From: Myxococcales bacterium SG8_38
GTDB lineage: Bacteria; Myxococcota_A; Polyangia; Polyangiales; Houyiibacteriaceae
NCBI GenBank assembly: GCA_001303415.1
Contig: LJTN01000029.1
Span: 1,156-65,155 of the forward strand
Length of the DNA stretch: 64,000 bases
Direction of reading: 5' to 3'
In this document: in pieces, positions 11,271-61,872 of the stretch
Numbering within the stretch: position 1 is the first letter of the stretch
How the letters are laid out: every line of letters starts with the position of its first letter
Notes under the pieces: generated by a model
The model's database searches: none
What the model was told of the DNA's origin: nothing
What the model saw: the letters and a program-made list of their open reading frames with translations, nothing else
Program-made: the position numbers and the translations under genes

Positions 11271-13005
11271 CCGAGGTAACGCCCACGCCGGTTTTCAAGG
11301 CGTCGGTGAGCGCCTCGCGCGTCTGGTATCCCTGCCGCAAGGCCCCGGAGATCATGCGGTAGGCGTCGTATCCGTAGGCGGCGAAGGTCGCCGGCGGCTG
11401 GCCGTAGCGCGTTTCGTAGGCCGTTCGAAAATGCTGGTTGATGGTTGAATCCGAGCCCTCGTAGAAAGGAAGTGCGATCAATGCGCCTTGAAGATAGCGC
11501 TGCGCCCGCCGAAGGAGGTTGGGCGCCCAGCTCGGACTGGGAAGCAGGAAGTGCACCTCCCGCTCGGCGTGGTCCGGGAGCGTGCCTTCGCCGATGCTCC
11601 AGGCGCCCTCCGCTGCGAAGGTCGGCGCGATCAGCGCAACATGCTCGCCGACATCGGCCAGCAGCACCGTGTTGCAGTCGGTCTCGAGCACGGTGCGGAC
11701 GTACTCGACGAACGACTTGGTTCCAGGGGGATAGGCCACGCCGTCGCAATAGACGCCTCCGGCTGCGGCGACTTCTTGGTCGAACAAACGCTCCATCGTT
11801 CGACCGTAGCCGTGGTCGGGGTACAAGATGACGAATCGAGACGAGCCACGCTTGCGGGCGGCTCGCACCAGCGCTTCGAGCTCGTCACGCGGGCTGTAGA
11901 GAAAACGAAACACCCTTTCTCCGGCGCCGGAGACGTCTTCGGAAGCCGAGAAGCTGATGAGGGGCACGCCGGCACGGCGCGTCACTTCCGCTGCAGCTTC
12001 GGTGGTTCGGCTTCCGACCGGACCGAGGACCGCGATGACCCGCTGGTCGCCGATCAGCGATTCCACTGCGGACGACGTCTTGGAAGGGCTGTCGCCCGTA
12101 TCTCGCACGACGAGCTCAGGCCCCCCCTCGTCGAGCTGCGCAAGCTGCATGCCTTGAAGCAGCTGGCGCCCGACCTCCTGCCCGCGGCCGCTCAACGGAA
12201 GCAAGGCCCCGAGCACATACGGATTCCCGTAGAGGAACTCATCGGCGCGCGCGACGAGCATGGCAACCTCCGGGTCGTCGAGAAAGCCGCTACCACGCAG
12301 GGCATCCGCCGTCGTCGTAATCAGGTCGGCGTCCTGTGTCTCGAGCGCATGCTGCAGCAGGCGCATCGATATCGCGACGTGGGGCAGGGCGCCCGTGCGA
12401 AGCTCGCCGAAAAGCGCAGCCGCCTCCTCGATGGTGACCTTTTGCGCCAGAAGCTCGATCGCAGCATCCAGGCGTTCGGGGTCCGGAGGCGCTGCGCCAC
12501 GGGCGATGAGGGCATCCACGACGCGGAGCCCGAGGCTCCCATCGATCGTCTGCTCCGATGCGATCACCGCAGTATCCCAAAGGAGCGCCTGCTCCTCGTC
12601 GGAGAAACGCTCCGCGGCAAGGGGCTCGATGCCTTGGAGCGCCCGCTCCGGATCTCCGAGCTTCAATCGGCACATCGCAAGGTGAAGCGAGGCGTGCAGC
12701 GCGATGGCCCGGTCGTCGCTGTCCTGTGCTTGCTCGAGGTGCGGAACGCCGCTCTGACAGCGGCCGAGGTCGGCCTGCAGCACGCCGAGCTCTAATCGAG
12801 CCAGATCTGCTTCCACGGTGCCCGGATGATTGATGATGAACGTCTCGTACGCGTTTTGAGCGGCGCGCGCGTCGCCTCGGGACGCAAGCTCCCGAGCCTG
12901 CGCAATTTCTGCCGGAGGTACTTTTTCGAGCGGGCTTTCGACCTTCTTCGGCGCGCAGCTGGTGAGCAGCATCAGCGCGGCGCACGACAATGCGCTTCGG
13001 GACAT
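11176..13005 (-). CDS. Lipoprotein with N-terminal TPR-like repeats and a C-terminal periplasmic-binding-protein (LivK/Peripla_BP_6-like) domain, an LpoA-like architecture
   Basis: I chose ATG 13005 (MSRSALSCAALMLLTSC, lipobox). Helical repeats (GDARAAQNAYETFI...). The C-terminal VIAVLGPVGSRTTEAAAEV..GVPLISFSA..RFVILYPDHGYGR is typical of type I periplasmic binding proteins. The 734-aa ORF extension overlaps rsmA. Confidence 0.7.
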   Translation of the reverse strand: MSRSALSCAALMLLTSCAPKKVESPLEKVPPAEIAQARELASRGDARAAQNAYETFIINHPGTVEADLARLELGVLQADLGRCQSGVPHLEQAQDSDDRAIALHASLHLAMCRLKLGDPERALQGIEPLAAERFSDEEQALLWDTAVIASEQTIDGSLGLRVVDALIARGAAPPDPERLDAAIELLAQKVTIEEAAALFGELRTGALPHVAISMRLLQHALETQDADLITTTADALRGSGFLDDPEVAMLVARADEFLYGNPYVLGALLPLSGRGQEVGRQLLQGMQLAQLDEGGPELVVRDTGDSPSKTSSAVESLIGDQRVIAVLGPVGSRTTEAAAEVTRRAGVPLISFSASEDVSGAGERVFRFLYSPRDELEALVRAARKRGSSRFVILYPDHGYGRTMERLFDQEVAAAGGVYCDGVAYPPGTKSFVEYVRTVLETDCNTVLLADVGEHVALIAPTFAAEGAWSIGEGTLPDHAEREVHFLLPSPSWAPNLLRRAQRYLQGALIALPFYEGSDSTINQHFRTAYETRYGQPPATFAAYGYDAYRMISGALRQGYQTREALTDALKTGVGVTSVTSVGSLSADRDPAHPPQLYEVRGDLLVALH

Positions 13006-14230: not shown

Positions 14231-16618
14231 GTGTCAGTCCGTGCCTCCATGGGCCTGGATGAGCTGCTCACCGTGCTCCAAGAAGCACGAAGGACCGAAG
14301 CGGTTCAGGATCGAACGGCCCTGGAGGCGGACTTGGCCTGGTGCTGGATCGAGCGGGGCGAGCTCGGAAAGGCCATTAGTTTGCTCTCGGAGCCCGTCGC
14401 CGAGGGACACACGCTCGTCGCCCGACGGCTGACCCGCGCGGAGATCCAGGGGTACTTCGGGAACGAGGACGCCGCGCTGCAGCTGCTCGAGCGCGGCCCC
14501 AATCGGAGCGAATCCTCGGTCATGGTGCAAGCGCGTGTTGCTGCGGCGCGGGGCGACTGGGCTAGGGCTCGTGCGCTCGACATCGATGCGTTCGATGCGC
14601 CAGGAGCCAAGCGGCGGGCGGCGTTGTTGGCTGCGCGTGCGTGCGTGGAGCAGAAGCGATTCGACGAAGCTTCGGCGCTCCTCGCACGCGTGGAGCCGCA
14701 CAGCGTGGCAGAGGGGCTCGAAGCGAGCTTGTTGGACGCTCACATCCGAAGGGTCGAGCTCCCGGCTGCGCTGGTCCGCATTGCAGAGCGTGCGCGCTCA
14801 GCCGGAGCTGCTCGCATCGAAGCGGATGCATGGGCCGATCTCGCGCTATTGCATCGATCGCACGAGCAACCGGAGGAGATGCGCAAGGCCGCGGTGCGCG
14901 CAGTCGAGCTCTGGGATGACATGGTGACCTCGCTTCCGGCACCCTTGCGGGCCGGTTTTTGGCGGGACGTGAGACGCGCCGCCGTACGGACCGCATCGAA
15001 GCGGCCCAAGCCCGACGTCGCCTCGCCAGCCATGAACGGTCTCGAAAGCTTACTTTCTAATCTTCGACGGCTTGCGGCCGAACGTGACCCCGCCAAGCTT
15101 CTCGCGGTCATCACCGACGGAGCGATCGAGCTCACCGGAGCTGAACGCGGCTTCGTGTTGCTCGTGGACGAGCACGGCACGCTCGAGGCTACGACGGTTC
15201 GCGGCGCCGAAACCCACCTCGGGAAGGAGACCGCAGCCTTCAGCCGATCCATCGCCGAAACGGTCCTGATCGATGGTGATCCGGTGGTGACGATTGACGC
15301 TGCGCGTGATGTCCGTGTCCAGGATTTCATGTCCGTTCACCACTTGATGCTCAAGTCGGTGGCTTGCCTTCCCATCGAGTCCCGCGGACGCACCTGGGGC
15401 GTGCTCTACCTAGAGCATCGAAGCGCGAGTGGCCGGTTCGCCGGCATCGATTTTTCGCTGCTTCGCGCGTACGCCGACCAGGCCGCAATTGCCATCGAAA
15501 CCTCGGAGCTCTTCGCGAGAATCGAGGCACAGAAGGGCGAGCTCAAAGAGGCAAATCGAGCGCTGCGCGAGGCAAATGCGCGGCTCGAGCAACGGCTTCG
15601 AGATCATGGCCCGGCAATCGACCCAGCTCCGCGCGTCGACCGCGCCCAAGGGCCGTCGTCTCGCGGCGAGCGTTGGGGGTTGGTCGGTGCGAGTGAAGGA
15701 ATGCGACGCGTGTATAAAATGCTTGAACGCGTCTCCGAAGCCGACGTGCCCGTCGTGATCATCGGTGAAAGCGGAACGGGAAAAGAGCTGGTCGCCCGCG
15801 CGATTCACCGCAACAGTCCACGTTCCGAGGCCCCGTACGTGTCCATGAGCTGTGGGGCGGTTCCCGAGGGGCTCCTCGAAAGCGAGTTGTTTGGACACGT
15901 GGCTGGCGCGTTCACGGGCGCCGCGCAGCCTCGCGACGGGGTCTTCGTTCAGGCTCACGGGGGCACGCTATTCATGGACGAGATCGCCGACATGCCAGCC
16001 CGGATGCAGCTCGACCTGCTGCGCGTGTTGCAGGAGCGGAGGGTTCGGCCGGTGGGCGGCTCCGAAGAAAGGCCCGTGGACGTGCGGCTGCTCACCGCAT
16101 CGAAGCGTCCGCTCCGGGAGCTCATCGAGGAAGGAACGCTTCGTGAAGACTTGTACTACCGGTTGGCGGTCGTCGAGATCCGACTCCCGCCGCTCCGGGA
16201 GCGACACTCCGACATTGCGCTGCTCTGCGATCATTTCCTTCGGCGCATCGCCGAGGATCGGAGCGAGCCGAAGAAGCGCCTGTCCCCGGATGCATATCGC
16301 CGCCTCTATGCTCACGACTTTCCAGGCAATGTTCGCGAGCTCGAGCATCTTCTGCTCAACGCTACGGTATTCGCCAAGGACGACGTCATCGAAGCGGACG
16401 AGCTCGCCATCGAGATCGGTCCCGCCTCGGCGACGTCCGCAGGCGATGTCGGCAGCTATCGCGACTACAAGCAAGGGGAGCGGGATCGAATCCTCGCCGC
16501 GCTCAACGCCAACGACTGGAACCGGGCCCGTGCGGCAAGGGCGCTCGGGATGGCGCGTCGCACCTTCTACCGACGGCTCAAGGAGCACGACATCGAACTA
16601 CCCAAGGGCAGCGGCTAG
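14231..16618 (+). CDS. Sigma54-dependent transcriptional activator (helical/TPR-like N-terminus, GAF, AAA+ sigma54-interaction domain, Fis-type HTH)
   Basis: Walker A GESGTGKELVARAIH, the sigma54-contact loop ESELFGHVAGAFTGA, LFMDEI, RVRPVGG, and RLAVVEIRLPPLRER. The C-terminal HTH is NWNRARAARALGMARRTFYRRL. A GAF-like segment (GFVLLVDEHGTLE...GVLYLEH) is present. Confidence 0.9.
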   Translation: MSVRASMGLDELLTVLQEARRTEAVQDRTALEADLAWCWIERGELGKAISLLSEPVAEGHTLVARRLTRAEIQGYFGNEDAALQLLERGPNRSESSVMVQARVAAARGDWARARALDIDAFDAPGAKRRAALLAARACVEQKRFDEASALLARVEPHSVAEGLEASLLDAHIRRVELPAALVRIAERARSAGAARIEADAWADLALLHRSHEQPEEMRKAAVRAVELWDDMVTSLPAPLRAGFWRDVRRAAVRTASKRPKPDVASPAMNGLESLLSNLRRLAAERDPAKLLAVITDGAIELTGAERGFVLLVDEHGTLEATTVRGAETHLGKETAAFSRSIAETVLIDGDPVVTIDAARDVRVQDFMSVHHLMLKSVACLPIESRGRTWGVLYLEHRSASGRFAGIDFSLLRAYADQAAIAIETSELFARIEAQKGELKEANRALREANARLEQRLRDHGPAIDPAPRVDRAQGPSSRGERWGLVGASEGMRRVYKMLERVSEADVPVVIIGESGTGKELVARAIHRNSPRSEAPYVSMSCGAVPEGLLESELFGHVAGAFTGAAQPRDGVFVQAHGGTLFMDEIADMPARMQLDLLRVLQERRVRPVGGSEERPVDVRLLTASKRPLRELIEEGTLREDLYYRLAVVEIRLPPLRERHSDIALLCDHFLRRIAEDRSEPKKRLSPDAYRRLYAHDFPGNVRELEHLLLNATVFAKDDVIEADELAIEIGPASATSAGDVGSYRDYKQGERDRILAALNANDWNRARAARALGMARRTFYRRLKEHDIELPKGSG

Positions 16619-21215: not shown

Positions 21216-23384
21216 ATGCGTATTCATTGGGGTCTCGCAATCGCCGTAGGGGCAGCTTTCGCATGGGTGAACATGGCTCGTGCGTTAGGGTCGGAAATCG
21301 ACCACGTCCGAATCGACGGCGAGCGCGACGGAGCATTCATCTCGATCGAAGGTGCGTTTCAAGATCCGCGATACGCGGTACGCGCTCGCGAGGATGGGCG
21401 CCTGATCATCATCGACATCGACAACGCCGCGCTGCCGCCGGGAGGCATCGAGACGAGGGGAACGAGCGCGTTGATCGCACGCACCGTGGCGAGCAGCACT
21501 GCGCAGGGCGCGCGAATCGAGCTGAAGCTCACCGACAAGGCCACCTATCACGCGCGTGCCAGCAACGATCGCATCACCGTCGATCTCCGGCGCGGCGGCG
21601 CGGCGGCCCGAGCCAAGCCGAAGACCTCTGCGGGCTCGAGCGCGCCTCGCATCGAACGGGTGGATCTCGAGCAGAGAGACGGTCGTGACCGAGTGGTCAT
21701 TTCCGTGCAAGGCGACGCGGAGTTTCGCGTATCTACGCGGGCTGGCGCGCCCCCCAGGTTGGAGGTTCTCGGCGCGCGCGTGAATCCCGACGTCAAGCGC
21801 CGTTTGGAGGCGCCGCGCGACGCCTTGATCGGTTCGGTCGAGCTCGAGCAAAAGGGAGACCGTGCGATCGTGGAGGTGCATGGCTCCGAGGGGGCTGCGG
21901 GCACGGCCATCCGCTCTGGGGACCGGATCGTCTGGATGTTCTCGCCCACGACCACCGAGACGCGTCCGCATTCCCGCACGATTGCACGTGAGAAAGACTA
22001 TGCCGCGGAGGTCGATGGACCCGAGGTGGCCGGCTTTTTGAGCCAGCTGCCCATGCAGATTGGACGAAAGCAAGACCAGCGTTACTCCGGCCGCCGAATC
22101 GACCTCGACTTCAAGGACGCCGACATCCACAACATTCTGCGGCTGCTCTCCGAGGTCGGCGGAGTAAACGTCGTCACCGCCGACAACGTCGGTGGCACGG
22201 TCACGATCCGCATGCGCGACGTTCCCTGGGATCAGGCCCTAGACGTGATCCTGCAGGCCAAGGGGCTCGGCATGGTGCGTCAGGGCAATCTGCTTCGGGT
22301 CGCCCCTCTCGCGCAGCTCGAGCAGGAGCGGGAGGCGGCCATTGCCCGACAGAAGCAGCAGCAGCAGCTCGCTCCGCTCGAAACGCGCCTCATTCCGGTG
22401 AGCTATGCGACTGCGCAGGGGCTCCAGCCGCGTGTTCGCGAGCTTCTCACCGATCGAGGGACCGTCTCGGTCGACACCCGGACGAACATGCTGATCGTGC
22501 GCGACATCGTCGGACAGCTCGACCAGGTCGAAGACTTGGTCCGGAGCCTGGATACGCAGACACCGCAGGTTCTGATCGAGTCACGCATCGTGGAGGCGAG
22601 CAGCACGTACTCGCGGGACATCGGCATTCAGTGGGGCGGCGCCGCAGTGATGAGCAGCGCAACGGGCAATCCCACCGGTCTGCGCTTCCCGTCCGACATC
22701 GGCATTGCGGGCGGTGTTCCCGTCGACAACGCGCCGACGCAAGGGCTCTCGCCGTTCAACGGCACGGTGAACAATCCGAACTTCGCGGTGAACCTGCCGG
22801 CCGTGACTGGTAACGGCGCAGGCGGCGCGCTTGGTCTGACCATGGGAAGCCTCAGCGGCGCCGTGAACCTGAACGTGCGTCTGAGCGCGGCGGAGGCGGC
22901 CGGCTCCGTTCGAATCATCAGCTCTCCGCGCGTGTTGACGTTGGACAACAAAGAGGCGTCGATCTCGCAGGGTACGTTGATTCCGTTCTCTCAGGTGAGC
23001 GCGCAGGGCGTCAACACGGCCTTCCAGGAAGCCAAGCTCGAGCTCAACGTCACTCCGCACGTGACCAGCGACGGCGCGGTGGCCATGGACGTGAAGATCA
23101 CGCGTAACGAGCCCGACTTCGGCCGCGTTGGCGCAAACGGCGACCCGACCATCCTCGAGCGCGAGGCGGTCACGCAGCTTCTCGTCGATGACGGCGATAC
23201 CGCGGTCATCGGGGGCATCTACACACGCAACACGGGCCGGAACGTCGACCAGGTGCCGTTCTTGGGCGACATTCCGGTGCTCGGCGTCTTCTTCAAGCGG
23301 CGCCGCTTCCGCGAGGACCGCAACGAGCTGCTGATTTTCCTCACGCCGCGGATCGTCAACCGCGCCTTGGCCCTCCCGGAATAG
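21216..23384 (+). CDS. pilQ: Type IV pilus secretin PilQ with N-terminal AMIN-like repeats
   Basis: The secretin C-terminal domain has QVLIESRIVEAS, ISSPRVLTLDNKEASISQG and VPFLGDIPVLGVFFKRR..ELLIFLTPRIV. Repeated AMIN-like units (RDGRDRVVISVQGDAEF and similar) occur in the N-terminus. Confidence 0.9.
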   Translation: MRIHWGLAIAVGAAFAWVNMARALGSEIDHVRIDGERDGAFISIEGAFQDPRYAVRAREDGRLIIIDIDNAALPPGGIETRGTSALIARTVASSTAQGARIELKLTDKATYHARASNDRITVDLRRGGAAARAKPKTSAGSSAPRIERVDLEQRDGRDRVVISVQGDAEFRVSTRAGAPPRLEVLGARVNPDVKRRLEAPRDALIGSVELEQKGDRAIVEVHGSEGAAGTAIRSGDRIVWMFSPTTTETRPHSRTIAREKDYAAEVDGPEVAGFLSQLPMQIGRKQDQRYSGRRIDLDFKDADIHNILRLLSEVGGVNVVTADNVGGTVTIRMRDVPWDQALDVILQAKGLGMVRQGNLLRVAPLAQLEQEREAAIARQKQQQQLAPLETRLIPVSYATAQGLQPRVRELLTDRGTVSVDTRTNMLIVRDIVGQLDQVEDLVRSLDTQTPQVLIESRIVEASSTYSRDIGIQWGGAAVMSSATGNPTGLRFPSDIGIAGGVPVDNAPTQGLSPFNGTVNNPNFAVNLPAVTGNGAGGALGLTMGSLSGAVNLNVRLSAAEAAGSVRIISSPRVLTLDNKEASISQGTLIPFSQVSAQGVNTAFQEAKLELNVTPHVTSDGAVAMDVKITRNEPDFGRVGANGDPTILEREAVTQLLVDDGDTAVIGGIYTRNTGRNVDQVPFLGDIPVLGVFFKRRRFREDRNELLIFLTPRIVNRALALPE

Positions 23385-23398
23385 CCCGAGCTGGCCCC

Positions 23399-24997
23399 GT
23401 GACTGGGCGGCGGGCTCCCCGTATGCTCCGTGACGTGCGCGTGTATCTGTCAGGGCCCATGGGGGCTGGAAAGTCGACGGTCGCCGGTGTTGTCGCCGAC
23501 CTTCTGGGCACCCGTGCGCTCGATTTGGATGTCCAGGTGGAGCGCCTCTTTGGGAGGTCGATTCCCCAGATCTTCGCGGAGCAGGGCGAGCAAGCCTTTC
23601 GGGCGCTCGAGAAAGAGGCCCTGAGGACGCTCCCGGGGGACGTGGGGGTCGTGTCGCTCGGCGGAGGGACGCTCGTCGACGACGAGACACGGCAGAGGCT
23701 GCTTGGGGAAGGGATCGTGATCACGTTGATTGCGGACCCTGCGGTCCTGGCGGCGCGCGTGGGACGGGGGGAAGGGAGGCCTTTGCTCGGCCCGGACCCG
23801 GAGGCCGACCTCGCGCGAATCCTCGCGCAGAGGGCGAACGCCTATGCCGAGGCCCACGCGGTCATCGACACGAAGACCTTGGACCCCGAGGAAATCGCCG
23901 CAGAGATCGTGGCGGTGCGCAATCTCAGGTCCATCGTCGTGCCCCTCGGCCTGCGCACATACCGCGTCGAGGTGGGGCGCGGCGCACGCCATCGGGTCGG
24001 GGTACGCGCCCGCGAGCACGCGCAGGGCGAGGCCATCCTGGTATTCGATGGAGACGCACGGCGTCCCTGGGCTGGAGAAGTCATTCATGATCTGACGATA
24101 GCCGGCAAACCTCCAATCGAGGTGAAGCTGTTGGGTGACGAGGCGCACAAGGACATCGCCAGCGTCGAGCGGATCTGGGATACGGCGCTCGACGCAGGGG
24201 TCGATCGAAGCGCCATCATGATCGGGCTCGGAGGCGGGGTGATCGGGGATCTGACGGCCTTCGCAGCCTCCACCTTGCTCCGTGGCGTGGCGCTCGGACA
24301 GGTGCCCACCACGCTCTTGTCGATGGTCGACAGCTCCGTGGGTGGCAAGACCGGCTTCAACCGTCCGCGCGGCAAGAACCTCGTGGGGACCTTCTATCAG
24401 CCGAAGTTCGTGCTGTGCGACGTCGAGACCTTGTCCACGCTCCCGCGCGAAGAGCGCATCGCGGGGTTGGCGGAGGTCGTCAAGAGCGCTTGGCTCGACT
24501 CCGAGGAATCGGTGGCCATGCTCGAGCAGAATGCCGAGGCGCTGGTGGAAGGCGACGAGGACGCGACCATTGCCGCCGTCCGCATGTCGGTGATGCTCAA
24601 GTCACGCATCGTGCACGAGGACGAGCAAGAATCGGGGCGCCGGATGCTCCTGAACCTCGGGCACACCGTCGGTCACGGCCTCGAAGCGGCAAGCGACTAT
24701 CGCGGAATTCGTCACGGGGAAGGGGTCGCCCTCGGAATGATCGCGGCCACGCGCGTGGCCGCTCGCCTCGGCCGCGGGCGTCCGGAAGAGACCGAGCGGC
24801 TGACGCGGCTTTTGGAAAGGCTCGGCCTGCCCACCGATCTCGACGCGAAGCTGAACGCCCGTGCGCTCGAGTTCATCGGCTCGGACAAGAAGCGCCGCGG
24901 AGACACAATTCACTTCATAATTCCGCGACTTCCGGGACAGACCGAGATAGTCCGGCTGGGGCTCGAGGAGGTGCGAGAGGCGCTCAGGGCATCCTAA
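23399..24997 (+). CDS. aroKB: Fused shikimate kinase and 3-dehydroquinate synthase
   Basis: The N-terminal P-loop YLSGPMGAGKSTVAGVVA and SLGGG belong to AroK. The remainder has GGGVIGDLTAFAAST, VDSSVGGKTG, LNLGHTVGHGLE and HGEGVALG, which belong to AroB. Confidence 0.9.
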   Translation: MTGRRAPRMLRDVRVYLSGPMGAGKSTVAGVVADLLGTRALDLDVQVERLFGRSIPQIFAEQGEQAFRALEKEALRTLPGDVGVVSLGGGTLVDDETRQRLLGEGIVITLIADPAVLAARVGRGEGRPLLGPDPEADLARILAQRANAYAEAHAVIDTKTLDPEEIAAEIVAVRNLRSIVVPLGLRTYRVEVGRGARHRVGVRAREHAQGEAILVFDGDARRPWAGEVIHDLTIAGKPPIEVKLLGDEAHKDIASVERIWDTALDAGVDRSAIMIGLGGGVIGDLTAFAASTLLRGVALGQVPTTLLSMVDSSVGGKTGFNRPRGKNLVGTFYQPKFVLCDVETLSTLPREERIAGLAEVVKSAWLDSEESVAMLEQNAEALVEGDEDATIAAVRMSVMLKSRIVHEDEQESGRRMLLNLGHTVGHGLEAASDYRGIRHGEGVALGMIAATRVAARLGRGRPEETERLTRLLERLGLPTDLDAKLNARALEFIGSDKKRRGDTIHFIIPRLPGQTEIVRLGLEEVREALRAS

Positions 24998-36979: not shown

Positions 36980-39900
36980 ATGCAGCCCACCAAGCTACGC
37001 GGCGCGTGCACCCACAATCTGCGTTCGATCGACCTCGACATCGCGCCAGGCACCTACCTTGCCATCGTGGGTCCGTCGGGCGCAGGAAAGTCGTCCCTCG
37101 CCTTCGGCACGCTATACGCCGAGGGCCAGCGCCGCTACGTGGAGAGCTTCAGCGCGTACGCGCGCCAGTTCCTAGAGCGGCTCTCTAGGCCTCCGGTGGA
37201 AGAGCTCGACCCGGTGCCGGTCGGCATCGCGGTGGATCGCCAAGCGCCCGTCCGGACCAGCCGCTCGACGGTCGGCACCATGACCGAGATCGCGGACTAC
37301 GCGAAGCATCTGTGGGCCCACGCAGCCGAGCTTCACTGTCCGAGCTGCGGGCAGCTGGTCCACCGGGATGCGCCTACGCGAGCTGCCCAAAGCGTCGTGC
37401 GCGAGCTTCCGGGTCAAAAGCTGGTGGTGACCTATCCCGTCGCGGTGGCGGACCAGGAGCACTTCATCGGCGTTCGAGAGGGCCTGCTCAAGGAAGGCTA
37501 CCGGCGGGTCCGAGTGAAGGGAGAGGTCCGCGACCTGGACGAGGTCCGGCCGAGCGATGTCACCAACGGGCGCAGCGCTCTGGTCGACGTGGTGGCGGAC
37601 CGAACCACCGCGCGCCCCGGGGACCAAGCGCGTCTGGTCGAAGCGCTCGAGGATGCCATGCGCCGCGGCGGGGGGCGGGCGACCGTGTGGTCCATGGACG
37701 GCGCCGAGCTCGGGTTCTCCGAGGGGCTCCACTGTCCGACCTGCGACCGCTCCTTCCGTCGGGCGACCCCAGGCCTTTTCAGCTTCAACAGCCCCATAGG
37801 GGCCTGCGAGACCTGCCGTGGATTCGGACGAACGATCGAGATCGATCTCGACCGGGTGATTCCCGACTACGACCTCTCTCCAAACGAAGGGGCGATTCGC
37901 GCTTGGCAGGGCAAGGCAACCGCCTGGGAGCGCCGCGAGCTCAACAAGCACGCCAAAGCGGCCGGCATGCCGCTCGACCAGCCGCTGCGGCAGTGGACCC
38001 CAGCGCAGCTCGATTGGCTGATCGAAGGGGACGAGCTCGGCTATCCCAAGGGATGGTGGGGCATTCGAAGCTGGTTCAAGTGGATGGAGTCGCGCGCGTA
38101 CAAGATGCACGTGCGGGTCTTTCTTTCGAGGTACCGAAAGTACGAAACGTGCCGCGATTGCCGGGGCACTCGCCTCAAAGACGAAGCGCTGGCGTGGCAG
38201 ATCGACGGTCTCAGCCTGCCCGGCCTCTACGCGCTGCCGGCCAAACAGGCCCTTTCGTTCTTGAAACGGCAAGAGATGCGGTTTGCCGAAGATCCGGGCG
38301 CTGCCTTGCTGTGGCGCGAAGCGCTGGGGCGGCTCCAAGCGCTCCACGACGTCGGTCTCGGTTACCTCTCGCTCGATCGCACCTCGCGAACGCTCTCGGG
38401 CGGCGAGACCCAGCGCGTCGCGCTCACCAGCGCGCTGGGCGCCACGCTCAACGGGGCGATGTTCGTGCTCGACGAGCCGACCGTCGGGCTTCATCCACGT
38501 GACGTCGAGCGCTTGCTCGGTGTCGTCCGCGCGTTGTCCAAAGACGAGAACGTGGCAGTGGTCGTGGAGCATGACCGCGAGATGATCCTCGGAGCCGACC
38601 GAGTGGTCGAGCTCGGACCCGGCGCCGGGGCAAGCGGCGGACGGATCGTCTTCGACGGCACGCCGGCCGCGCTGCAAAAGGCACGTACGGCCACCGGGGC
38701 GGCCCTTGGCAGCAACGGTGCGTTTCGGCGCGTACGGCGGGAGCCCAAGGGCTGGATCGAGCTCGCTGCGGCCGCGGGACACAACCTGCGATCGATCGAC
38801 GTGTCGATACCGCTCGGCGTGATGACGTGCATCACCGGGGTGAGCGGATCGGGCAAGAGCAGTCTCGTTCTCGAAACCTTGCTGCCTGCCGTGCAGCAAC
38901 GGCTGGGCGACAAATCGGAGAACGCACCCCTGCAGCACGGGGGCCTCCGGGGTGCCGATTCGCTCGCAGGCGTTATCGGCGTCGACCAGGCCCCACTCGG
39001 TCGAACTTCGCGTGGGAACGCCGCGACGTATTTGAAGATTTGGGACTTGTTTCGAAAGCGCTTTGCCGACCAGCCATTGGCCAAGGAGCGGGGGTACAAA
39101 CCGGGTTTCTTCTCGTTCAACGTCCCGGGAGGCCGATGCGAGGCTTGCCGGGGCGATGGCGCCGAAACGGTGGAGATGCAGTTCTTGGCCGATGTGGTCT
39201 TCAGCTGTCCGGAGTGCCAAGGCCGCCGGTTCGTCGGTCCCGTTCTCGACGTGCGGTACCAAGGGCTTCACATCGCGGACGTCCTCGAACTGACCGCGCA
39301 CCAAGCAGCGGAGCGCTTCGCGGCGGACGGGCCGATCGTGCGCGCGCTCGAGCCCCTGGTCGAGGTAGGGCTCGGCTACCTGCGTCTCGGCCAGCCCCTC
39401 AACACGCTTTCGGGCGGTGAGGCGCAGCGACTCAAGCTCGCCGAAGCGCTGGTCCGCGCCCTGCCGGAATCCCTTCTGATCTTCGACGAGCCCACGGCGG
39501 GCCTCCACGCAAACGACGTGGCGCCGCTGATGGAGGTCTTCGACCGCTTGGTCGATCGGGGCGACACCGTCGTGGTCGTCGAGCACGACATGCAGGTGGC
39601 GGCCCATGCCGATCACGTCATCGACCTCGGGCCGGGAGCTGGCGAGGAAGGCGGGCGCATCGTGGCCCAAGGGCCGCCGGAAGCAGTCGCGCGGGCCAAG
39701 CGTTCTCAGAGCGCGCCGTATTTGGCGCGCGCGCTCGGAAGAACCGGCGCCGACAAACGTGCGAAACGTGCTGCAAAGCGCCAGGGCTCATCTGCTGGCA
39801 TCCGCGACATTCGAATCGCCGGCGCACGCGAGCACAACCTCAAGAACATCACCGTCCACATCCCGCGCGACCAGCTGGTGGTGCTCACCGGGCCCAGCGG

Positions 39901-42289
39901 AAGCGGCAAGAGCACGTTGGCGTTCGACGTGCTGTTCGCCGAGGGGCAGCGCCGCTATCTCGAAACGCTTTCGCCCTACGCGCGTCAATACATGCCGCAG
40001 CTCCCGCGTCCTTCGGTCGATCAGGTCGTGGGCGTTCCGCCGAGCGTATCGCTCGAGCAGCGACTCACGCGCGCCGGGGCGAACTCGACGGTGGCGACCG
40101 TGACCGAGGTGTCCCACTATCTTCGGCTGATCTGGGCTCGCATCGGAGTCCTGCACTGCGTGGATTGCGAGGTGCCGATCGCGGCGCGTTTGCCCTCCGA
40201 GCTGGCCAGGGATTTGAAGGAACGTTTCGGCGCGAAGCCCGTGACGTTGCTCGCGCCGGTGGTGCGCGGACGAAAAGGCATCCACCGCGAGCTGCTCGAC
40301 AAGGCTCGAAAGAAGGGCTTCACCGAGGCCCGCATCGACGGTGAGATCCGCAAGCTCGAGCCGGGATTGAAGCTCGATCGCTACGTCGAGCATGACGTCG
40401 AGCTGGTGGTGGGCCGCGCGCCGGCCAGAGCCCCCGAGCTCCCGCAGCTCCTCGAAGAGGCGTTGGCGGCGGGGGATGGTACCGCTTGGGCGCTCTGCGG
40501 CGACGAAGAGGCGCAGCTTTCGAGCAAGCGCGCGTGTCCGAGCTGCGGTCGCGGCTATCCAGAGCTCGACCCGCGATTCTTTTCGTTCAACACTCGCCAG
40601 GGCCAGTGCCCGGCGTGTGAAGGTCGCGGCGAGATCGTCAAAAAGAAGTGGCGAGGTCGCCGGAAGAAGCGCGACGTGCACAGGCGCGCGTGCGAGGAAT
40701 GCGGCCAGACCCGGCTTTCGCCGCTCGCGCGGGGCGTCACCGTCGGCGACATGTCGATCACCGACTTGTTCGAGCAAAGCGTTTCCGAAGCCGTGCACAC
40801 GCTGCAGAAGCTACGCCTGGAGGGTCGCGACGAAACGATCGCCAAGGCGCCGCTGCACGAAGCGCTCCGGCGCCTCTGGTTCCTCGAAGAAGTGGGGCTC
40901 GGTTATTTGGGCCTCGGGCGTGCAGCCGACACGTTGAGCGGCGGAGAGATGCAGCGCGTGCGGCTCGCCGCACAGCTCGGAAGCGGATTGACCGGGGTGC
41001 TCTATGTTCTCGACGAGCCCACGATTGGGTTGCACCCCCGCGACACGGGAAGGCTCCTCGGCGCCCTGCGCGGCCTGGTCGACCGAGGCAACTCCGTGCT
41101 CGTCGTGGAGCACGATGCCGACACCATCCGGGCAGCGGACCACGTCATCGACGTCGGTCCCGGCGGCGGGAAGCACGGCGGCCGGGTCGTGGCGCAGGGA
41201 CGGCTCGAGGCCCTCAAGGGGTCGGTCACGGGCGCAGCGCTCGGGCGTCCTCCCAAACTGCCTGCCCAACGGCGCCATACGAGAGACGCGGACTGGCTGG
41301 AGCTCACCGGGGTCGATCACCACAACTTGAAGAACGTCGACGTACGCCTCCCGCTCCGGCGGTTCGTCGCCGTGACCGGCGTCAGCGGCTCGGGCAAGAG
41401 CTCGTTGGTCCGCGAGGTCCTCTTGCGGGCGACGAGGGAGGCCGTCGGGATGGTCAACGACGCGCCGCCGGGGAGCTTTCGAGCCATCGCGGGATTCGAG
41501 CCTCTGAAGCGCGCCATCGAGATCGACCAGAGCCCCATCGGCCGCACGCCACGATCGGTTCCGGCCACGTACATCGGTATTTGGAACACCGTGCGACAGC
41601 TGTTGGCGGGAACCCCGGAAGCCCGGGCGCGTGGCTACACGGCGAGCCGCTTTTCGTTCAACGTCGAGGAAGGGCGGTGTCCGGAGTGCCAGGGACAGGG
41701 CTCCATTCACGTCGAGATGGCTTTTTTGCCCGACGTCGACGTTCCCTGCGAGACCTGCAATGGAATGCGGTTCACGCCGGAAACCTCGTCGGTCCGCTGG
41801 CAAGGGCTCAATGCCGGAGAGCTCCTTCAACTCGAGGTGACCGAGGCCGTCGAGGTGTTCGCACCCATCAAGGGGATTCGCGAGCCGCTAGAGCTCCTGG
41901 ATGAGCTAGGGCTCGGCTATCTGCACCTCGGGCAGCCGTCGAACACCCTGAGCGGGGGCGAGGCGCAGCGCATCAAGCTCGTGTCGGAGCTGGCGGTGGG
42001 GCTCAACACCGGCCCCACGCTCTACGTGATGGACGAGCCGACTACGGGGCTTCACCGCGACGACGTCGACCGATTGCTCGGCGTGCTCGATCGCTTGGTG
42101 GAGCGCGGCGACACGGTGGCTGTCATCGAGCATCATCCCGACGTGATGGTCGCAGCCGACTGGATCATCGACCTGGGACCGGAAGGGGGCGCGCAGGGCG
42201 GTCGCGTGATCGCGCAAGGCGCGCCCGAAACCATCGCCAAGCGCAAGCGCAGCCACACCGGCAAGATCCTTCGCCGCGAGCTCGGGTAG
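36980..42289 (+). CDS. Tandemly duplicated UvrA-like ABC ATPase (two complete UvrA-like units, four nucleotide-binding modules)
   Basis: Four Walker A motifs ([36 protein letters not shown]). Four ABC signatures ([32 protein letters not shown]). UvrA hallmarks occur twice ([33 protein letters not shown]...GRC..C.G.G). The units are joined by [21 protein letters not shown] near 39700-39790. Confidence 0.85.
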
Positions 42290-42312: not shown

Positions 42313-42786
42313 TCAGTGCGTGCCGAGCTCTTTGAGGTCCGGGCCGGCCCACAGCGGCACGGACAACCGTCGCTGAAGATCGGCGGCCGTCAGGCCATGC
42401 CGTATCTCGCGAACCCGCACGCCTTCCGCGGTGAAGTCGAACACCGCCACCGGACAAATGAGACGGGACACCCGGACCCCGCCGGAGCCGGTCGATCGAA
42501 TGAGCGACGACAGACCTTCGAGCCCGGTCGTGCTCAGCGCAATGACCGGACACGTGGCGCTCGGGGGAGCCTCGCTCGTATTCGCGCTTCCTTGCGGCGA
42601 GACCGCGCTCACCTCGACGAAGGCCACATCCGGAGAACGTGCGTGATCTTCGGCTTCCTCTGCTTCCACTGTGCGCCGCAGGAGCTGTGGCAGGCCTGCG
42701 CCGAACCAAGCCTCCTTCGATTCACATTCCTCAGCCGCGCGCCAGAGCAGGCGGTCGAGCTCAGCTGCGTGCGCGGGCGATGGCAT
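42313..42786 (-). CDS. Hypothetical protein with a weak CoA-transferase beta-subunit-like C-terminus
   Basis: I chose ATG 42786 (MPSPAHAAELD...). The tail ICPVAVFDFTAEGVRVREIRHGLTAADLQRRLSVPL resembles the ..AVFD....G..L.E..PG.T.E.. ending of family I CoA-transferase B subunits. At 157 aa it is too short for a full subunit. It overlaps the 3' end of carA by 26 nt. Confidence 0.3.
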   Translation of the reverse strand: MPSPAHAAELDRLLWRAAEECESKEAWFGAGLPQLLRRTVEAEEAEDHARSPDVAFVEVSAVSPQGSANTSEAPPSATCPVIALSTTGLEGLSSLIRSTGSGGVRVSRLICPVAVFDFTAEGVRVREIRHGLTAADLQRRLSVPLWAGPDLKELGTH

Positions 42787-43873
42787 CGGTGAAGCGTCGG
42801 AACAGATACCGCGAATCGTGAGGCCCCGCAGCCGCCTCTGGGTGATATTGGACGCTGAACGCCCCCGTCTCGAGATGCTCGATTCCTTCGCAGGTGCCAT
42901 CGTTGAGATGAAGATGCGTGAGCTCGCACTTGCCCATCAGCGAGTCGACGTCGACGCAGAATCCGTGATTCTGGGTCGTGATCTCGATGCGTCCCGTCTT
43001 GAGATCCTTGACTGGTTGATTGAGGCCGCGGTGCCCGAACTTCAGCTTGTAGCTTTCGCCGCCTAGCGCCAGGCTCAATAGCTGATGGCCGAGGCAAATA
43101 CCGAACATCGGCCGCTGACCAAGAAGCTCTCGCACGGTTGCAATGCCAGATGAAACCGCAGCTGGGTCTCCCGGACCGTTTGACAAGAAGATGCCATCGG
43201 GGTCGAGGGCCAGCACCTCTTTCGCGGTCGTGCTTGCAGGCACCACGGTGACCCTACACCCCTCATCGATCAGGCATCTCAAGATGTTCCGCTTGATGCC
43301 GAAATCCATCGCCACCACGCGCCACGAACGCGCATTGTCGCGCGGCTCCGACCACATGCCGCTGCCCTCGGTCCATTCGTACGCCTCCGGCGTCGTCACC
43401 TCGCCCGTCAGATTCTGGCCGACCATCGAAGGAGCCGCCTTGGCCCGATCGTGCAGCGAGGCAGGGTCTTCCGTGCCCACCGCCGCCATTTTCGCCCCGA
43501 CGTCTCGGATGTGCCGTGTCAACGATCGGGTGTCGATACCCGAGATGCCGACGATCCCGTGACGCTTCAAATACGCGTCGAGCGACTCCTTGGCGCGCCA
43601 GTTGCTCTCCACGGCCGATAGCTCGCGCACGACGAAGCCACGGAGCGCCGGACGCCTCGCTTCGCTGTCTTCGAGGGTGATTCCCGTGTTCCCGATCTGT
43701 GGGGCCGTCATCGTGACGATTTGCCCGCAATAGGAGGGATCGGTGAGCACCTCTTCGTAACCGGTCATGCCTGTCGTGAATACGGCCTCGCCGGTGGCGG
43801 CGCCCTCTGCGCCAAAGCTCTCACCCACGAAACGTGTCCCATCTGCGAGTACCAGATTTGCTTGCTTGTTCAT
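42761..43873 (-). CDS. carA: Carbamoyl-phosphate synthase small (glutamine amidotransferase) subunit
   Basis: FTTGMTGYEEVLTDPSYCGQIV, the GATase active site FGICLGHQLL, and HGFCVD. Confidence 0.95.
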   Translation of the reverse strand: MNKQANLVLADGTRFVGESFGAEGAATGEAVFTTGMTGYEEVLTDPSYCGQIVTMTAPQIGNTGITLEDSEARRPALRGFVVRELSAVESNWRAKESLDAYLKRHGIVGISGIDTRSLTRHIRDVGAKMAAVGTEDPASLHDRAKAAPSMVGQNLTGEVTTPEAYEWTEGSGMWSEPRDNARSWRVVAMDFGIKRNILRCLIDEGCRVTVVPASTTAKEVLALDPDGIFLSNGPGDPAAVSSGIATVRELLGQRPMFGICLGHQLLSLALGGESYKLKFGHRGLNQPVKDLKTGRIEITTQNHGFCVDVDSLMGKCELTHLHLNDGTCEGIEHLETGAFSVQYHPEAAAGPHDSRYLFRRFTDAIARARS

Positions 43874-60192: not shown

Positions 60193-60249
60193 GCCACGGC
60201 GCCATCTTTGCAGCCTGACAGTGCCCCAGGTAGCCTGGGTGAGGGGGTC

Positions 60250-61872
60250 ATGGCTCGCATCACCATCATGGGGCCGAGCGGGCGGCAGGAGCGTCAGCTC
60301 TTTCGCCACAATTCGCTCGGGCGCCACCCCCGCAACACGCACCAGGTTCTCGATCGGGTCGTTTCGAAGGAGCACTGCCACATCGACTTGGTCGCGGGTC
60401 ACTACGTCCTGCGGGACCTCGGCTCGCTCAACGGCACCTTCGTCAACGGCCAACGTGTGCAGGAGCGACGGCTCGAGCCCGGCGACGAGATCACCATCGG
60501 CTCCACGCGCATCGTTTTCGAGCCCGCACGGCGTAGCACGCACATTTCTTTCGATGGCCTCGGGGCCGAAGAGCTTCAGGACGCCACCAACCGTTTCAAG
60601 ATCGGCGACTCGGACGCGGGCCCGTTGATTCGCGCGAAGGTTTCCGTTCTAGCGGAGAAGACCTTTTTCGCCGAAGAGCTGATCGAGGACGAAGCGTCGC
60701 TGCGCCGCGACTACGAGAAGCTCCGCGCGAGCTACGAAGTGACGCGCGCCATTGAGATTGGAACCAGTGTCACGGCTTTGTGCAACAAGATCCTCGAAGT
60801 CGCTTTCCGGCTCGTCCCGGCGGACCGAGGGGTGATTCTCCTCCATGACGACCGAGGGCTCCTCGAGCCCGTTTCGGTGCGAACGGGCGAGGGGGTCGAC
60901 CCGGATCAAGAGGTCGTCGTATCGAAGACCGTCCTCGACACCGTGGTCCGCGAAAAGGAAGCCGTCCTGTCGCACGATGCTTCGTCGGATGCTCGCTTTC
61001 AGAGCGCGCAATCCGTGATCATGCAAGGAATCCGTTCAACCATGTGCGTTCCGCTCCTGCACAAGGATACGGTTCTCGGGGTCATGATGTTGGACTCGAA
61101 GCTCGCGACCCACGCGTTTACCGAGAAGGACCTGGCGCTTTTCGAAACGGTCGCCAGCCAGGCTGCGATCGCAATACAAAACACCCTGTTTGCGAAGAAG
61201 CTCGAGCAGGAGGCCGTGATGCGCGAGCGTTTTCGCCGTCTATTGTCTCCCGCCATCGCAGAGCAGGTCCTCTCCGGCGAGCTGGAGGTGAAGAAAGGCG
61301 GGGAGCTTCGAGAAACCACCATCCTCTTCGCGGACATTCGGGGCTTCACCGGCATCAGCGAGTCTTGCGCGCCGCAGGTGGTGGTCGATGCGCTCAACGA
61401 GTATTTCGAGCGCATGGTCGAGATCGTGTTCCGCTACGAGGGAACGCTCGACAAGTTCATCGGTGACGAGATGATGGTGCTCTTCGGAGCGCCTGTCGCT
61501 CATCTCGACGATCCGGTCCGCGCCGTGCGCGCGGCGCTCGAAATGCAGGCAGCGATGGCCGCGCTGAACTTGGGTCACGAAGCGCGTGGGTTGCCGCCTT
61601 TCGAGATCGGCATCGGCATCAACACGGGGGAAGTGGTCGCCGGCTACATCGGAAGCAGCGAAGCGCTCGAATACACCGTGATCGGCGACCCCGTGAACAC
61701 GGGCTCCCGCCTGTGCGCGATCGCAAAGCCGGGGCAGACGCTGATCAGCGAGGGAACCCGTGAAAAGCTGGGCGGCCAGTTCGAGCTGAGAGAGCTCCCC
61801 GACGAGCAACTCAAGGGCAAGACAAGGCCGACCAAGGTCTTCGAGCTGTTGGGCGGCGCCGAGCGCGACTAG
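60250..61872 (+). CDS. FHA-GAF-class III adenylate/guanylate cyclase
   Basis: The FHA domain has GRHPRNTHQV..VSKEHCHI...LRDLGSLNGTFVNG. The GAF-like region has ADRGVILLHDD..VLGVMMLD. The cyclase domain has TILFADIRGFTGISE, KFIGDEMMVLFGAP, IGINTGEVVAGYIGS and YTVIGDPVNTGSRL. ATG 60250 follows GAGGGGG. Confidence 0.9.
   Translation: MARITIMGPSGRQERQLFRHNSLGRHPRNTHQVLDRVVSKEHCHIDLVAGHYVLRDLGSLNGTFVNGQRVQERRLEPGDEITIGSTRIVFEPARRSTHISFDGLGAEELQDATNRFKIGDSDAGPLIRAKVSVLAEKTFFAEELIEDEASLRRDYEKLRASYEVTRAIEIGTSVTALCNKILEVAFRLVPADRGVILLHDDRGLLEPVSVRTGEGVDPDQEVVVSKTVLDTVVREKEAVLSHDASSDARFQSAQSVIMQGIRSTMCVPLLHKDTVLGVMMLDSKLATHAFTEKDLALFETVASQAAIAIQNTLFAKKLEQEAVMRERFRRLLSPAIAEQVLSGELEVKKGGELRETTILFADIRGFTGISESCAPQVVVDALNEYFERMVEIVFRYEGTLDKFIGDEMMVLFGAPVAHLDDPVRAVRAALEMQAAMAALNLGHEARGLPPFEIGIGINTGEVVAGYIGSSEALEYTVIGDPVNTGSRLCAIAKPGQTLISEGTREKLGGQFELRELPDEQLKGKTRPTKVFELLGGAERD

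Follow-up and report, generated by a model that had tools for sequence, protein, structure and literature searches.

A conserved double-length UvrA of the Myxococcota with two unequal units in one chain, a candidate covalent pseudo-dimer

In bacterial nucleotide excision repair, UvrA is the sensor that acts first, and its familiar class I form is a homodimer of a protein of about 940 amino acids (aa). The locus described here raises the question of how such a sensor would be built and would work when two UvrA units are encoded in a single chain. It lies in a 64,000 nucleotide stretch of Myxococcales bacterium SG8_38 (GenBank assembly GCA_001303415.1, contig LJTN01000029.1, positions 1,156 to 65,155 of the forward strand), which is called the window below and whose first nucleotide is position 1 of all window coordinates. 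At 36980..42289 on the forward strand the window contains an open reading frame (ORF) that begins with ATG and encodes 1,769 aa followed by a stop codon, with no interruption. The protein, here called the double UvrA, consists of two non-identical units. We conclude that it is the product of one genuine gene that is conserved across the Myxococcota (classes Polyangia and Myxococcia), and we lean moderately towards the view that it is a covalent pseudo-dimer, a damage sensor that docks one UvrB through its first unit.

A first-pass annotation of the window, made from the sequence alone, had claimed that this ORF contains two complete UvrA units joined by a basic linker, and both parts of that claim were borne out. 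Unit 1 (36980..39724, forward strand, as are all features of the gene given here; aa 1-915) comprises a first nucleotide-binding domain (NBD-I), a UvrB-binding domain, an insertion domain, a second nucleotide-binding domain (NBD-II) and three zinc modules. It is followed by the basic linker (39725..39808, aa 916-943) and by unit 2 (39809..42286, aa 944-1769), which is a class-I-type UvrA without the insertion domain. Core identity between the two units is 44%. The annotation had proposed a comparison with UvrA hidden Markov models as a check. In that comparison unit 1 (searched as aa 1-916) aligned to NF001503 in a single stretch over model positions 7-937 of 943 (904 bits), and unit 2 (searched as aa 937-1769) aligned in two stretches (1009 bits) separated by a break at the site where the insertion domain is expected. 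Both are complete UvrA-like units, and unit 2 is not a partial ABC duplication. The whole protein passes the cut-offs of both TIGR00630 (1874 bits, cut-off 729.8) and NF001503 (1910 bits, cut-off 1147). The single units, at 894 and 986 bits, each also exceed the TIGR00630 cut-off, and their NF001503 scores are both below the cut-off of that model.

The motif content agrees with the alignments, since four sets of ABC motifs are present. Each of the four ABC modules has a Walker A, a Walker B, a signature and an H-loop. The Walker A loops are GPSGAGKS in NBD-I of unit 1 (37070..37093, aa 31-38), GVSGSGKS in NBD-II of unit 1 (38837..38860, aa 620-627), GPSGSGKS in NBD-I of unit 2 (39890..39913, aa 971-978) and GVSGSGKS in NBD-II of unit 2 (41378..41401, aa 1467-1474). 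The LSGGE signatures are at aa 472, 810, 1319 and 1657, and the Walker B motifs (DEPT) at aa 498, 836, 1345 and 1685. There are 12 CxxC pairs, six in each unit, which correspond to three zinc modules per unit. Pfam PF17760, the UvrB-interaction domain, was matched in both units, namely in the UvrB-binding domain of unit 1 (37349..37732, aa 124-251) and in a UvrB-binding-domain-like fold of unit 2 (40169..40534, aa 1064-1185). PF17755, the DNA-binding or insertion domain of UvrA, was matched only in unit 1, at aa 289-352 over model positions 1-64 of 110. The insertion domain of unit 1 (37817..38149, aa 280-390) lies between the CxxC pairs of zinc module 2, which are 111 aa apart in unit 1 versus 24 aa in unit 2, where a basic stub (40619..40690, aa 1214-1237) takes the place of the domain. 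The unequal insertions described in the first-pass annotation are therefore confirmed.

A double-length ORF could also arise if an assembly or sequencing error, or a pseudogene, merged two adjacent uvrA genes, and two observations lend themselves to that explanation: the source is a metagenome-assembled genome (MAG), and a related locus carries a frameshift. Against it, the identical ORF was found on three independent assemblies, including assemblies from ENA and JGI, and its product is 100% identical to the NCBI entry "hypothetical protein AMJ62_08665" of Myxococcales bacterium SG8_38. When one genome for each GTDB species was scanned, at least 291 stretches encoding a relative were identified; the best 80 of these loci matched the query over its full length (50-93% identity), and almost all of them were labeled Myxococcota. 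A long UvrA frame was present in 78 of 79 newly fetched loci; in 66 fetched loci the frame runs through both units without interruption for at least 1,700 aa, and the shorter ones mostly end at a contig edge. A database protein search gave more than 110 protein clusters of 1,740-1,850 aa with 61-93% identity. Cultured genomes encode proteins of the same length, since a search seeded with a Myxococcaceae homologue found an equivalent of approximately 1,765 aa in cultured Archangium, Melittangium, Cystobacter, Myxococcus and Corallococcus, as well as in Stigmatella, Pyxidicoccus, Hyalangium and Polyangium, and cultured Sandaracinus likewise has a protein of this length named UvrA. Across a family alignment of 67 species-level sequences, the ATPase motifs of all four modules (Walker A, Walker B, signature and H-loop) and the twelve CxxC pairs are conserved, with the NBD-I Walker A of unit 1 kept in 66 of the 67 members. 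With the identical ORF on three assemblies and the single frame conserved in dozens of species, we rejected the artefact explanation and give it a negligible probability. The frameshifted locus (L061, on a long-contig MAG) has its frame split by a single frameshift near residue 646 (near 11958-11964), and another locus, L079, gave a short, partial match flanked by 600 N (scaffold gaps); both defects look like assembly issues and not biology.

We compared the two units with the two established classes of UvrA. Class II (UvrA2/DrrC/Ecm16) is defined by the loss of the UvrB-binding domain and of zinc module 1 (PMC9328131). By sequence and by predicted structure, both units of the double UvrA are class-I-like rather than class II, because both score higher against class I structures, PF17760 occurs twice, and the AlphaFold2 models match class I structures. 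Against the class I structure 2r6f, unit 1 scored 742 bits over aa 6-915 and unit 2 scored 817 bits, and the class I structure 3pih was also among those that outscored class II for both units. The corresponding values for units 1 and 2 were 552 and 567 bits against the class II UvrA2 structure 2vf7, and 465 and 450 bits against the class II Ecm16 structure 7sh1. The layout of each unit is the one common to the class I proteins of E. coli, B. stearothermophilus (2R6F/3UWX), T. maritima (3PIH) and M. tuberculosis (3ZQJ), and in the core unit 1 is 47% and unit 2 53% identical to the B. stearothermophilus protein. Class II members (D. radiodurans UvrA2, 2VF7; Ecm16, 7SH1; DrrC) are also UvrA-family ABC ATPases and occur as an extra copy beside a canonical UvrA. 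Unlike them, the two units of the window protein retain PF17760 along with the two CxxC pairs of zinc module 1, and similarity to the class II structures amounts to 450-567 bits. A class II or drug-resistance paralogue was considered as the family assignment and rejected, as both units keep the UvrB-binding-domain fold.

AlphaFold2 models were made of the two units separately. Mean pLDDT was 86.4 for unit 1 and 86.3 for unit 2; the unit 1 model had a TM-score of 0.88 to 3uwx_A, and the unit 2 model had TM-scores of 0.80-0.87 to 3uwx, 2r6f and 3zqj. The insertion domain of unit 1 was modeled confidently and is mostly helical, and the stub of unit 2 was modeled as a beta-hairpin with moderate confidence (pLDDT 61-71). 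In M. tuberculosis UvrA, the insertion domain has a beta-hairpin at residues 363-377 (PMC11985968). The second half of the unit 1 insertion domain, which lies outside the PF17755 match, is aromatic-rich, conserved in the family and mostly helical in the model.

The family alignment was then used to ask how constant the differences between the units are. The insertion domain of unit 1 is 110-115 aa long in all 67 members, with a mean pairwise identity of 65%, and the stub of unit 2 is 16-25 aa long in all 67 and usually basic (mean net charge +4.7). The linker varies from 25 to 63 aa (median 28), with a mean pairwise identity of 26% and a mean net charge of +5.7. The UvrB-binding-domain-like fold of unit 2 has a mean identity of 51%, far above that of the linker, which indicates that this domain remains under constraint. 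The surface by which E. coli/Bacillus UvrA contacts UvrB (and Mfd) is made by R216 and E222, and the R216A E222A variant is described as disrupting it (PMC3025350). The equivalents of R216 and E222 in unit 1, Arg218 (37631-37633) and Glu224 (37649-37651), are invariant (67/67). In unit 2 the column equivalent to R216 holds an Arg in 2 of 67 sequences, and the column equivalent to E222 holds a Glu in 37 of 67. In the window protein the contact Arg is replaced by Glu1153, and the family alignment showed no conserved Arg anywhere within aa 1146-1161 of unit 2. Judged from these alignments, the asymmetry reaches beyond the insertion domain to the UvrB-contact residues. Unlike class I UvrA, therefore, unit 2 has neither the insertion domain nor the contact equivalent to R216. 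The first-pass annotation had suggested that an asymmetric pseudo-dimer could recognize DNA differently from the UvrA of excision repair, and we regard this suggestion as plausible, the more so as the residues that contact UvrB are part of the asymmetry. Unit 2 corresponds to a naturally occurring form of the E. coli UvrA delta290-400 deletion of the insertion domain. That deletion affects both protomers, whereas the window protein retains one insertion domain, and by analogy such a half-deleted pseudo-dimer may have altered specificity.

In order to place the two units relative to those of other double UvrAs, a neighbor-joining tree was built from 222 units over 752 core columns, with a narrow sample of single-unit UvrAs. 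The window protein and 50 other doubles have their units in one unit-1 clade and one unit-2 clade; in 39 of these 51 doubles a full unit precedes one that lacks the insertion domain, and the other 12 have two full units. This pattern points to a single old fusion whose descendants would form a multi-phylum clade. In the wider clade the Arg equivalent to R216 is present in 48 of 52 first units and in 4 of 53 second units, and all 38 single-unit UvrAs have it. Other double lineages mostly retain this Arg in both units, for example P0150 from the Planctomycetota, whose first unit is full and whose second unit likewise lacks the insertion domain, and P0178 from the Fibrobacterales. Since these two proteins fall outside both of the clades containing the units of the window protein and keep the Arg in both units, doubles of this type appear to be separate fusions with a symmetric capacity for UvrB docking. 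One single unit, P0180 (984 aa, on a 6.8 kb ENA contig), lies inside the unit-1 clade with 63.5% core identity to unit 1 of the window protein, and it may be either a double shortened by truncation or a frameshift or a true split form of the fusion.

What might a chain of this kind do? DNA binding by UvrA depends on dimerization, and the labor is divided between its two insertion domains; structures of the M. tuberculosis protein distinguish a "recognition" from a "support" insertion domain, and the first UvrB binds the protomer with the support domain (PMC11985968). Both A2B1 and A2B2 complexes have been seen for that protein, and disassembly of the dimer has been proposed for hand-off of the lesion (PMC11985968). 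In the arrangement that we favor, units 1 and 2 would pair within one chain and occupy both protomer places of the UvrA2 dimer. The result would be a DNA-damage sensor made of one chain, with six zinc modules and four ATPase sites that all work. Unit 1 would provide the sole insertion domain, that is, the lesion-clamping element, and through Arg218 and Glu224 the sole canonical dock for UvrB (or Mfd). Unit 2 would provide a canonical ATPase and DNA-binding core together with a short basic hairpin at the second insertion-domain place, and would retain the UvrB-binding-domain fold with a changed surface. A monomer of such a protein would suffice for DNA binding, and a single UvrB would be recruited, always on the same side. 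We infer the intramolecular pairing, the docking of a single UvrB and the role in nucleotide excision repair.

Several points weigh against this arrangement. The structural models cover each unit by itself. In the M. tuberculosis scheme the first UvrB goes to the protomer with the released insertion domain, and the lesion is held by the insertion domain of the other protomer (PMC11985968); a single insertion domain and a UvrB dock that are both on unit 1 cannot be mapped simply onto that scheme, a mismatch that keeps the proposed function uncertain. Bootstrap support for the unit clades is modest, with exact recovery in 22-29 of 100 replicates and a mean best Jaccard overlap of 0.91-0.97. The literature searched contained no experiments on any member of the double-UvrA clade to which the window protein belongs. 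Finally, Myxococcus probably has a canonical UvrA beside the double, assuming that M. xanthus carries the double, and because of this probable coexistence the window protein may be a second sensor and not the main one of excision repair.

The first of these points bears on a different geometry, in which the units would pair between molecules (unit 1 with unit 1, unit 2 with unit 2, or head to tail) to form dimers or chains with at least eight ATPase sites. A flexible and poorly conserved linker would permit this. The complementary asymmetry of the units is most simply understood if both always act as a pair, the linker is never shorter than 25 aa in the 67 sequences, which would fit a length needed for bridging, and the fusion has been stable across phyla; we therefore consider pairing between molecules improbable.

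The evidence for a coexisting canonical UvrA is indirect and comes from M. xanthus, in which uvrA MXAN_2609 is damage-inducible and LexA-regulated. The published RT-qPCR primers for MXAN_2609 encode QMEKPK and YLRVLY. Both motifs are absent from every Myxococcaceae double UvrA that we retrieved, and both occur in a 966-aa single-unit UvrA encoded on metagenomic contigs of 70% GC in which the sequence of the forward primer is found. MXAN_2609 is the sole UvrA that two M. xanthus data sets list as induced by damage. These observations, together with the loss of the UvrB-contact Arg from unit 2, would also suit a specialized paralogue that, like the class II proteins Ecm16 and DrrC, acts independently of UvrB, for example by clearing DNA-binding metabolites, or that serves some other DNA transaction, with excision repair left to the canonical UvrA. 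Myxobacteria are prolific metabolite producers, which counts in the same direction. Such a paralogue, in either of these roles, seems to us unlikely, since class II is marked by loss of the UvrB-binding domain (PMC9328131) and both units keep that fold, unit 1 keeps R218 and E224 throughout the family, and both units resemble class I structures more than class II. In addition, no biosynthetic cluster is present around the double uvrA in the window.

The single-chain sensor with one UvrB dock can be carried one step further, to a hard-wired asymmetric UvrA "dimer" that cannot come apart, has a single insertion domain and docks no more than one UvrB, on unit 1, and we put this forward only tentatively. 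If it is true, and if the protein supports excision repair, then neither two UvrBs nor disassembly of the UvrA dimer is needed for lesion hand-off. A natural system would then be at hand in which the "protomers", and likewise the four ATPase sites, could be mutated one at a time, and strand choice and A2B1 versus A2B2 stoichiometry could be tested directly. How a symmetric UvrA2 chooses the strand, and whether it engages one UvrB or two, were stated in 2025 to be unresolved (PMC11985968). A widespread single-chain UvrA with unequal halves would be a ready-made tool for these questions of strand choice and UvrB number, and the double UvrA is present in cultured, genetically tractable myxobacteria.

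How widespread double UvrAs are was determined from a search of unit 1 against 1.84 billion representatives at 50% identity, of which the best 150 matches were considered. Nearly all of these 150 were proteins of 1,200-2,340 aa, and 83 split cleanly into two complete units. Several architectures were seen: two full units; a full unit and then one that lacks the insertion domain, as in the window protein; the reverse order, with the unit without the insertion domain first; a full unit with a class-II-like unit; and two class-II-like units in a protein of approximately 1,600 aa. Named sources of double UvrAs were Polyangiaceae, Thermodesulforhabdus norvegica, Planctomycetota, Fibrobacterales and "bacterium HR30". 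Candidatus Kinetoplastibacterium crithidii also encodes one, on a 0.8 Mb contig, and partial double-length proteins came from Burkholderiales, Verrucomicrobiota, Spirochaetia and others. Proteins with two class-II-like units, both without the UvrB-binding domain, include P0204, P0206, P0211, P0230, P0234, P0239 and others (approximately 1,590-1,680 aa), a group different from that of the window protein. Mixed doubles of a full and a class-II-like unit are P0201, P0237 and P0241. Two further doubles, P0135 (2,334 aa) and P0143 (2,343 aa), carry approximately 450-500 residues beyond their two units.

The first-pass annotation had described duplicated UvrAs as a rare and functionally uncharacterized "class III". 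Rarity did not hold, given the at least 291 GTDB species genomes with a relative, the list of best matches made up almost entirely of long proteins, and the doubles already annotated as UvrA in cultured myxobacteria, Planctomycetes and Chlamydia. The description as functionally uncharacterized agrees with the literature that we searched, which yielded no work on the function or structure of a double UvrA. Use of the term "class III" for UvrA was likewise not found in that literature, and the label stands unconfirmed; the doubles with two class-II-like units may perhaps be the further UvrA class of older reviews. The fusion itself is not new. Databases name the cultured myxobacterial proteins "excinuclease ABC subunit UvrA" or "UvrABC system protein A", a fused, double-length UvrA is on record for Planctomycetes (Mahajan et al. 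2021, PMC8567305), and ct333/uvrA of Chlamydia trachomatis is a gene of 5,361 bp encoding 1,786 aa (PMC6686042).

The chlamydial protein, annotated "UvrABC system protein A", is also a tandem double, and NF001885 is a long-UvrA equivalog model of 1,809 positions. Membership of the window protein in that family (NF001885/PRK00635), which we take to be a Chlamydiae family, was considered and rejected, because it scores 1070 bits against a cut-off of 3054, although it is colinear with model positions 5-1223, across the junction of the units. Five other double UvrAs also fall below this cut-off.

Inspection of the region upstream of the double uvrA for a promoter, a terminator or an SOS box gave nothing notable. 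An antisense ORF of 832 aa (37172-39670) overlaps the gene, and we read it and the other overlapping ORFs as shadow ORFs of a gene with 66% GC. The neighbors in the window are housekeeping genes, namely carA, dihydroorotase, citrate synthase, ApbE, a MoxR/DUF58/BatA group, groEL and pilQ. As the first-pass annotation had stated, no uvrB or uvrC lies nearby, and neither was found within the 64-kb window. The genes uvrA, uvrB and uvrC are usually unlinked in bacteria.

Upstream of the double uvrA, the segment 33912-36905 (forward strand) encodes DUF4159 and GATase1_like domains, and downstream of it, the segment 49376-54160 (reverse strand) encodes BatA/VWA, DUF58 and a MoxR AAA ATPase. The orthologue of Sandaracinus amylolyticus (L083, 1-8866) likewise adjoins a MoxR-DUF58-VWA-BatD-TPR operon, and the Bat/MoxR genes beside the double uvrA are probably a conserved neighborhood only. 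Immediately downstream of uvrA, a called gene of 157 aa without a Pfam match (42313-42789, reverse strand) overlaps the end of carA. Elsewhere in the window, a 532-aa protein (23399-24997, forward strand) combines shikimate kinase (SKI) with the N- and C-terminal domains of 3-dehydroquinate synthase in an AroK-AroB fusion, directly downstream of a PilQ-type secretin gene (21216-23384, forward strand). Signaling proteins are also encoded, an FHA-GAF-adenylate/guanylate cyclase and a GAF-containing sigma-54 activator, at 60208-61872 and 14231-16618, both on the forward strand.

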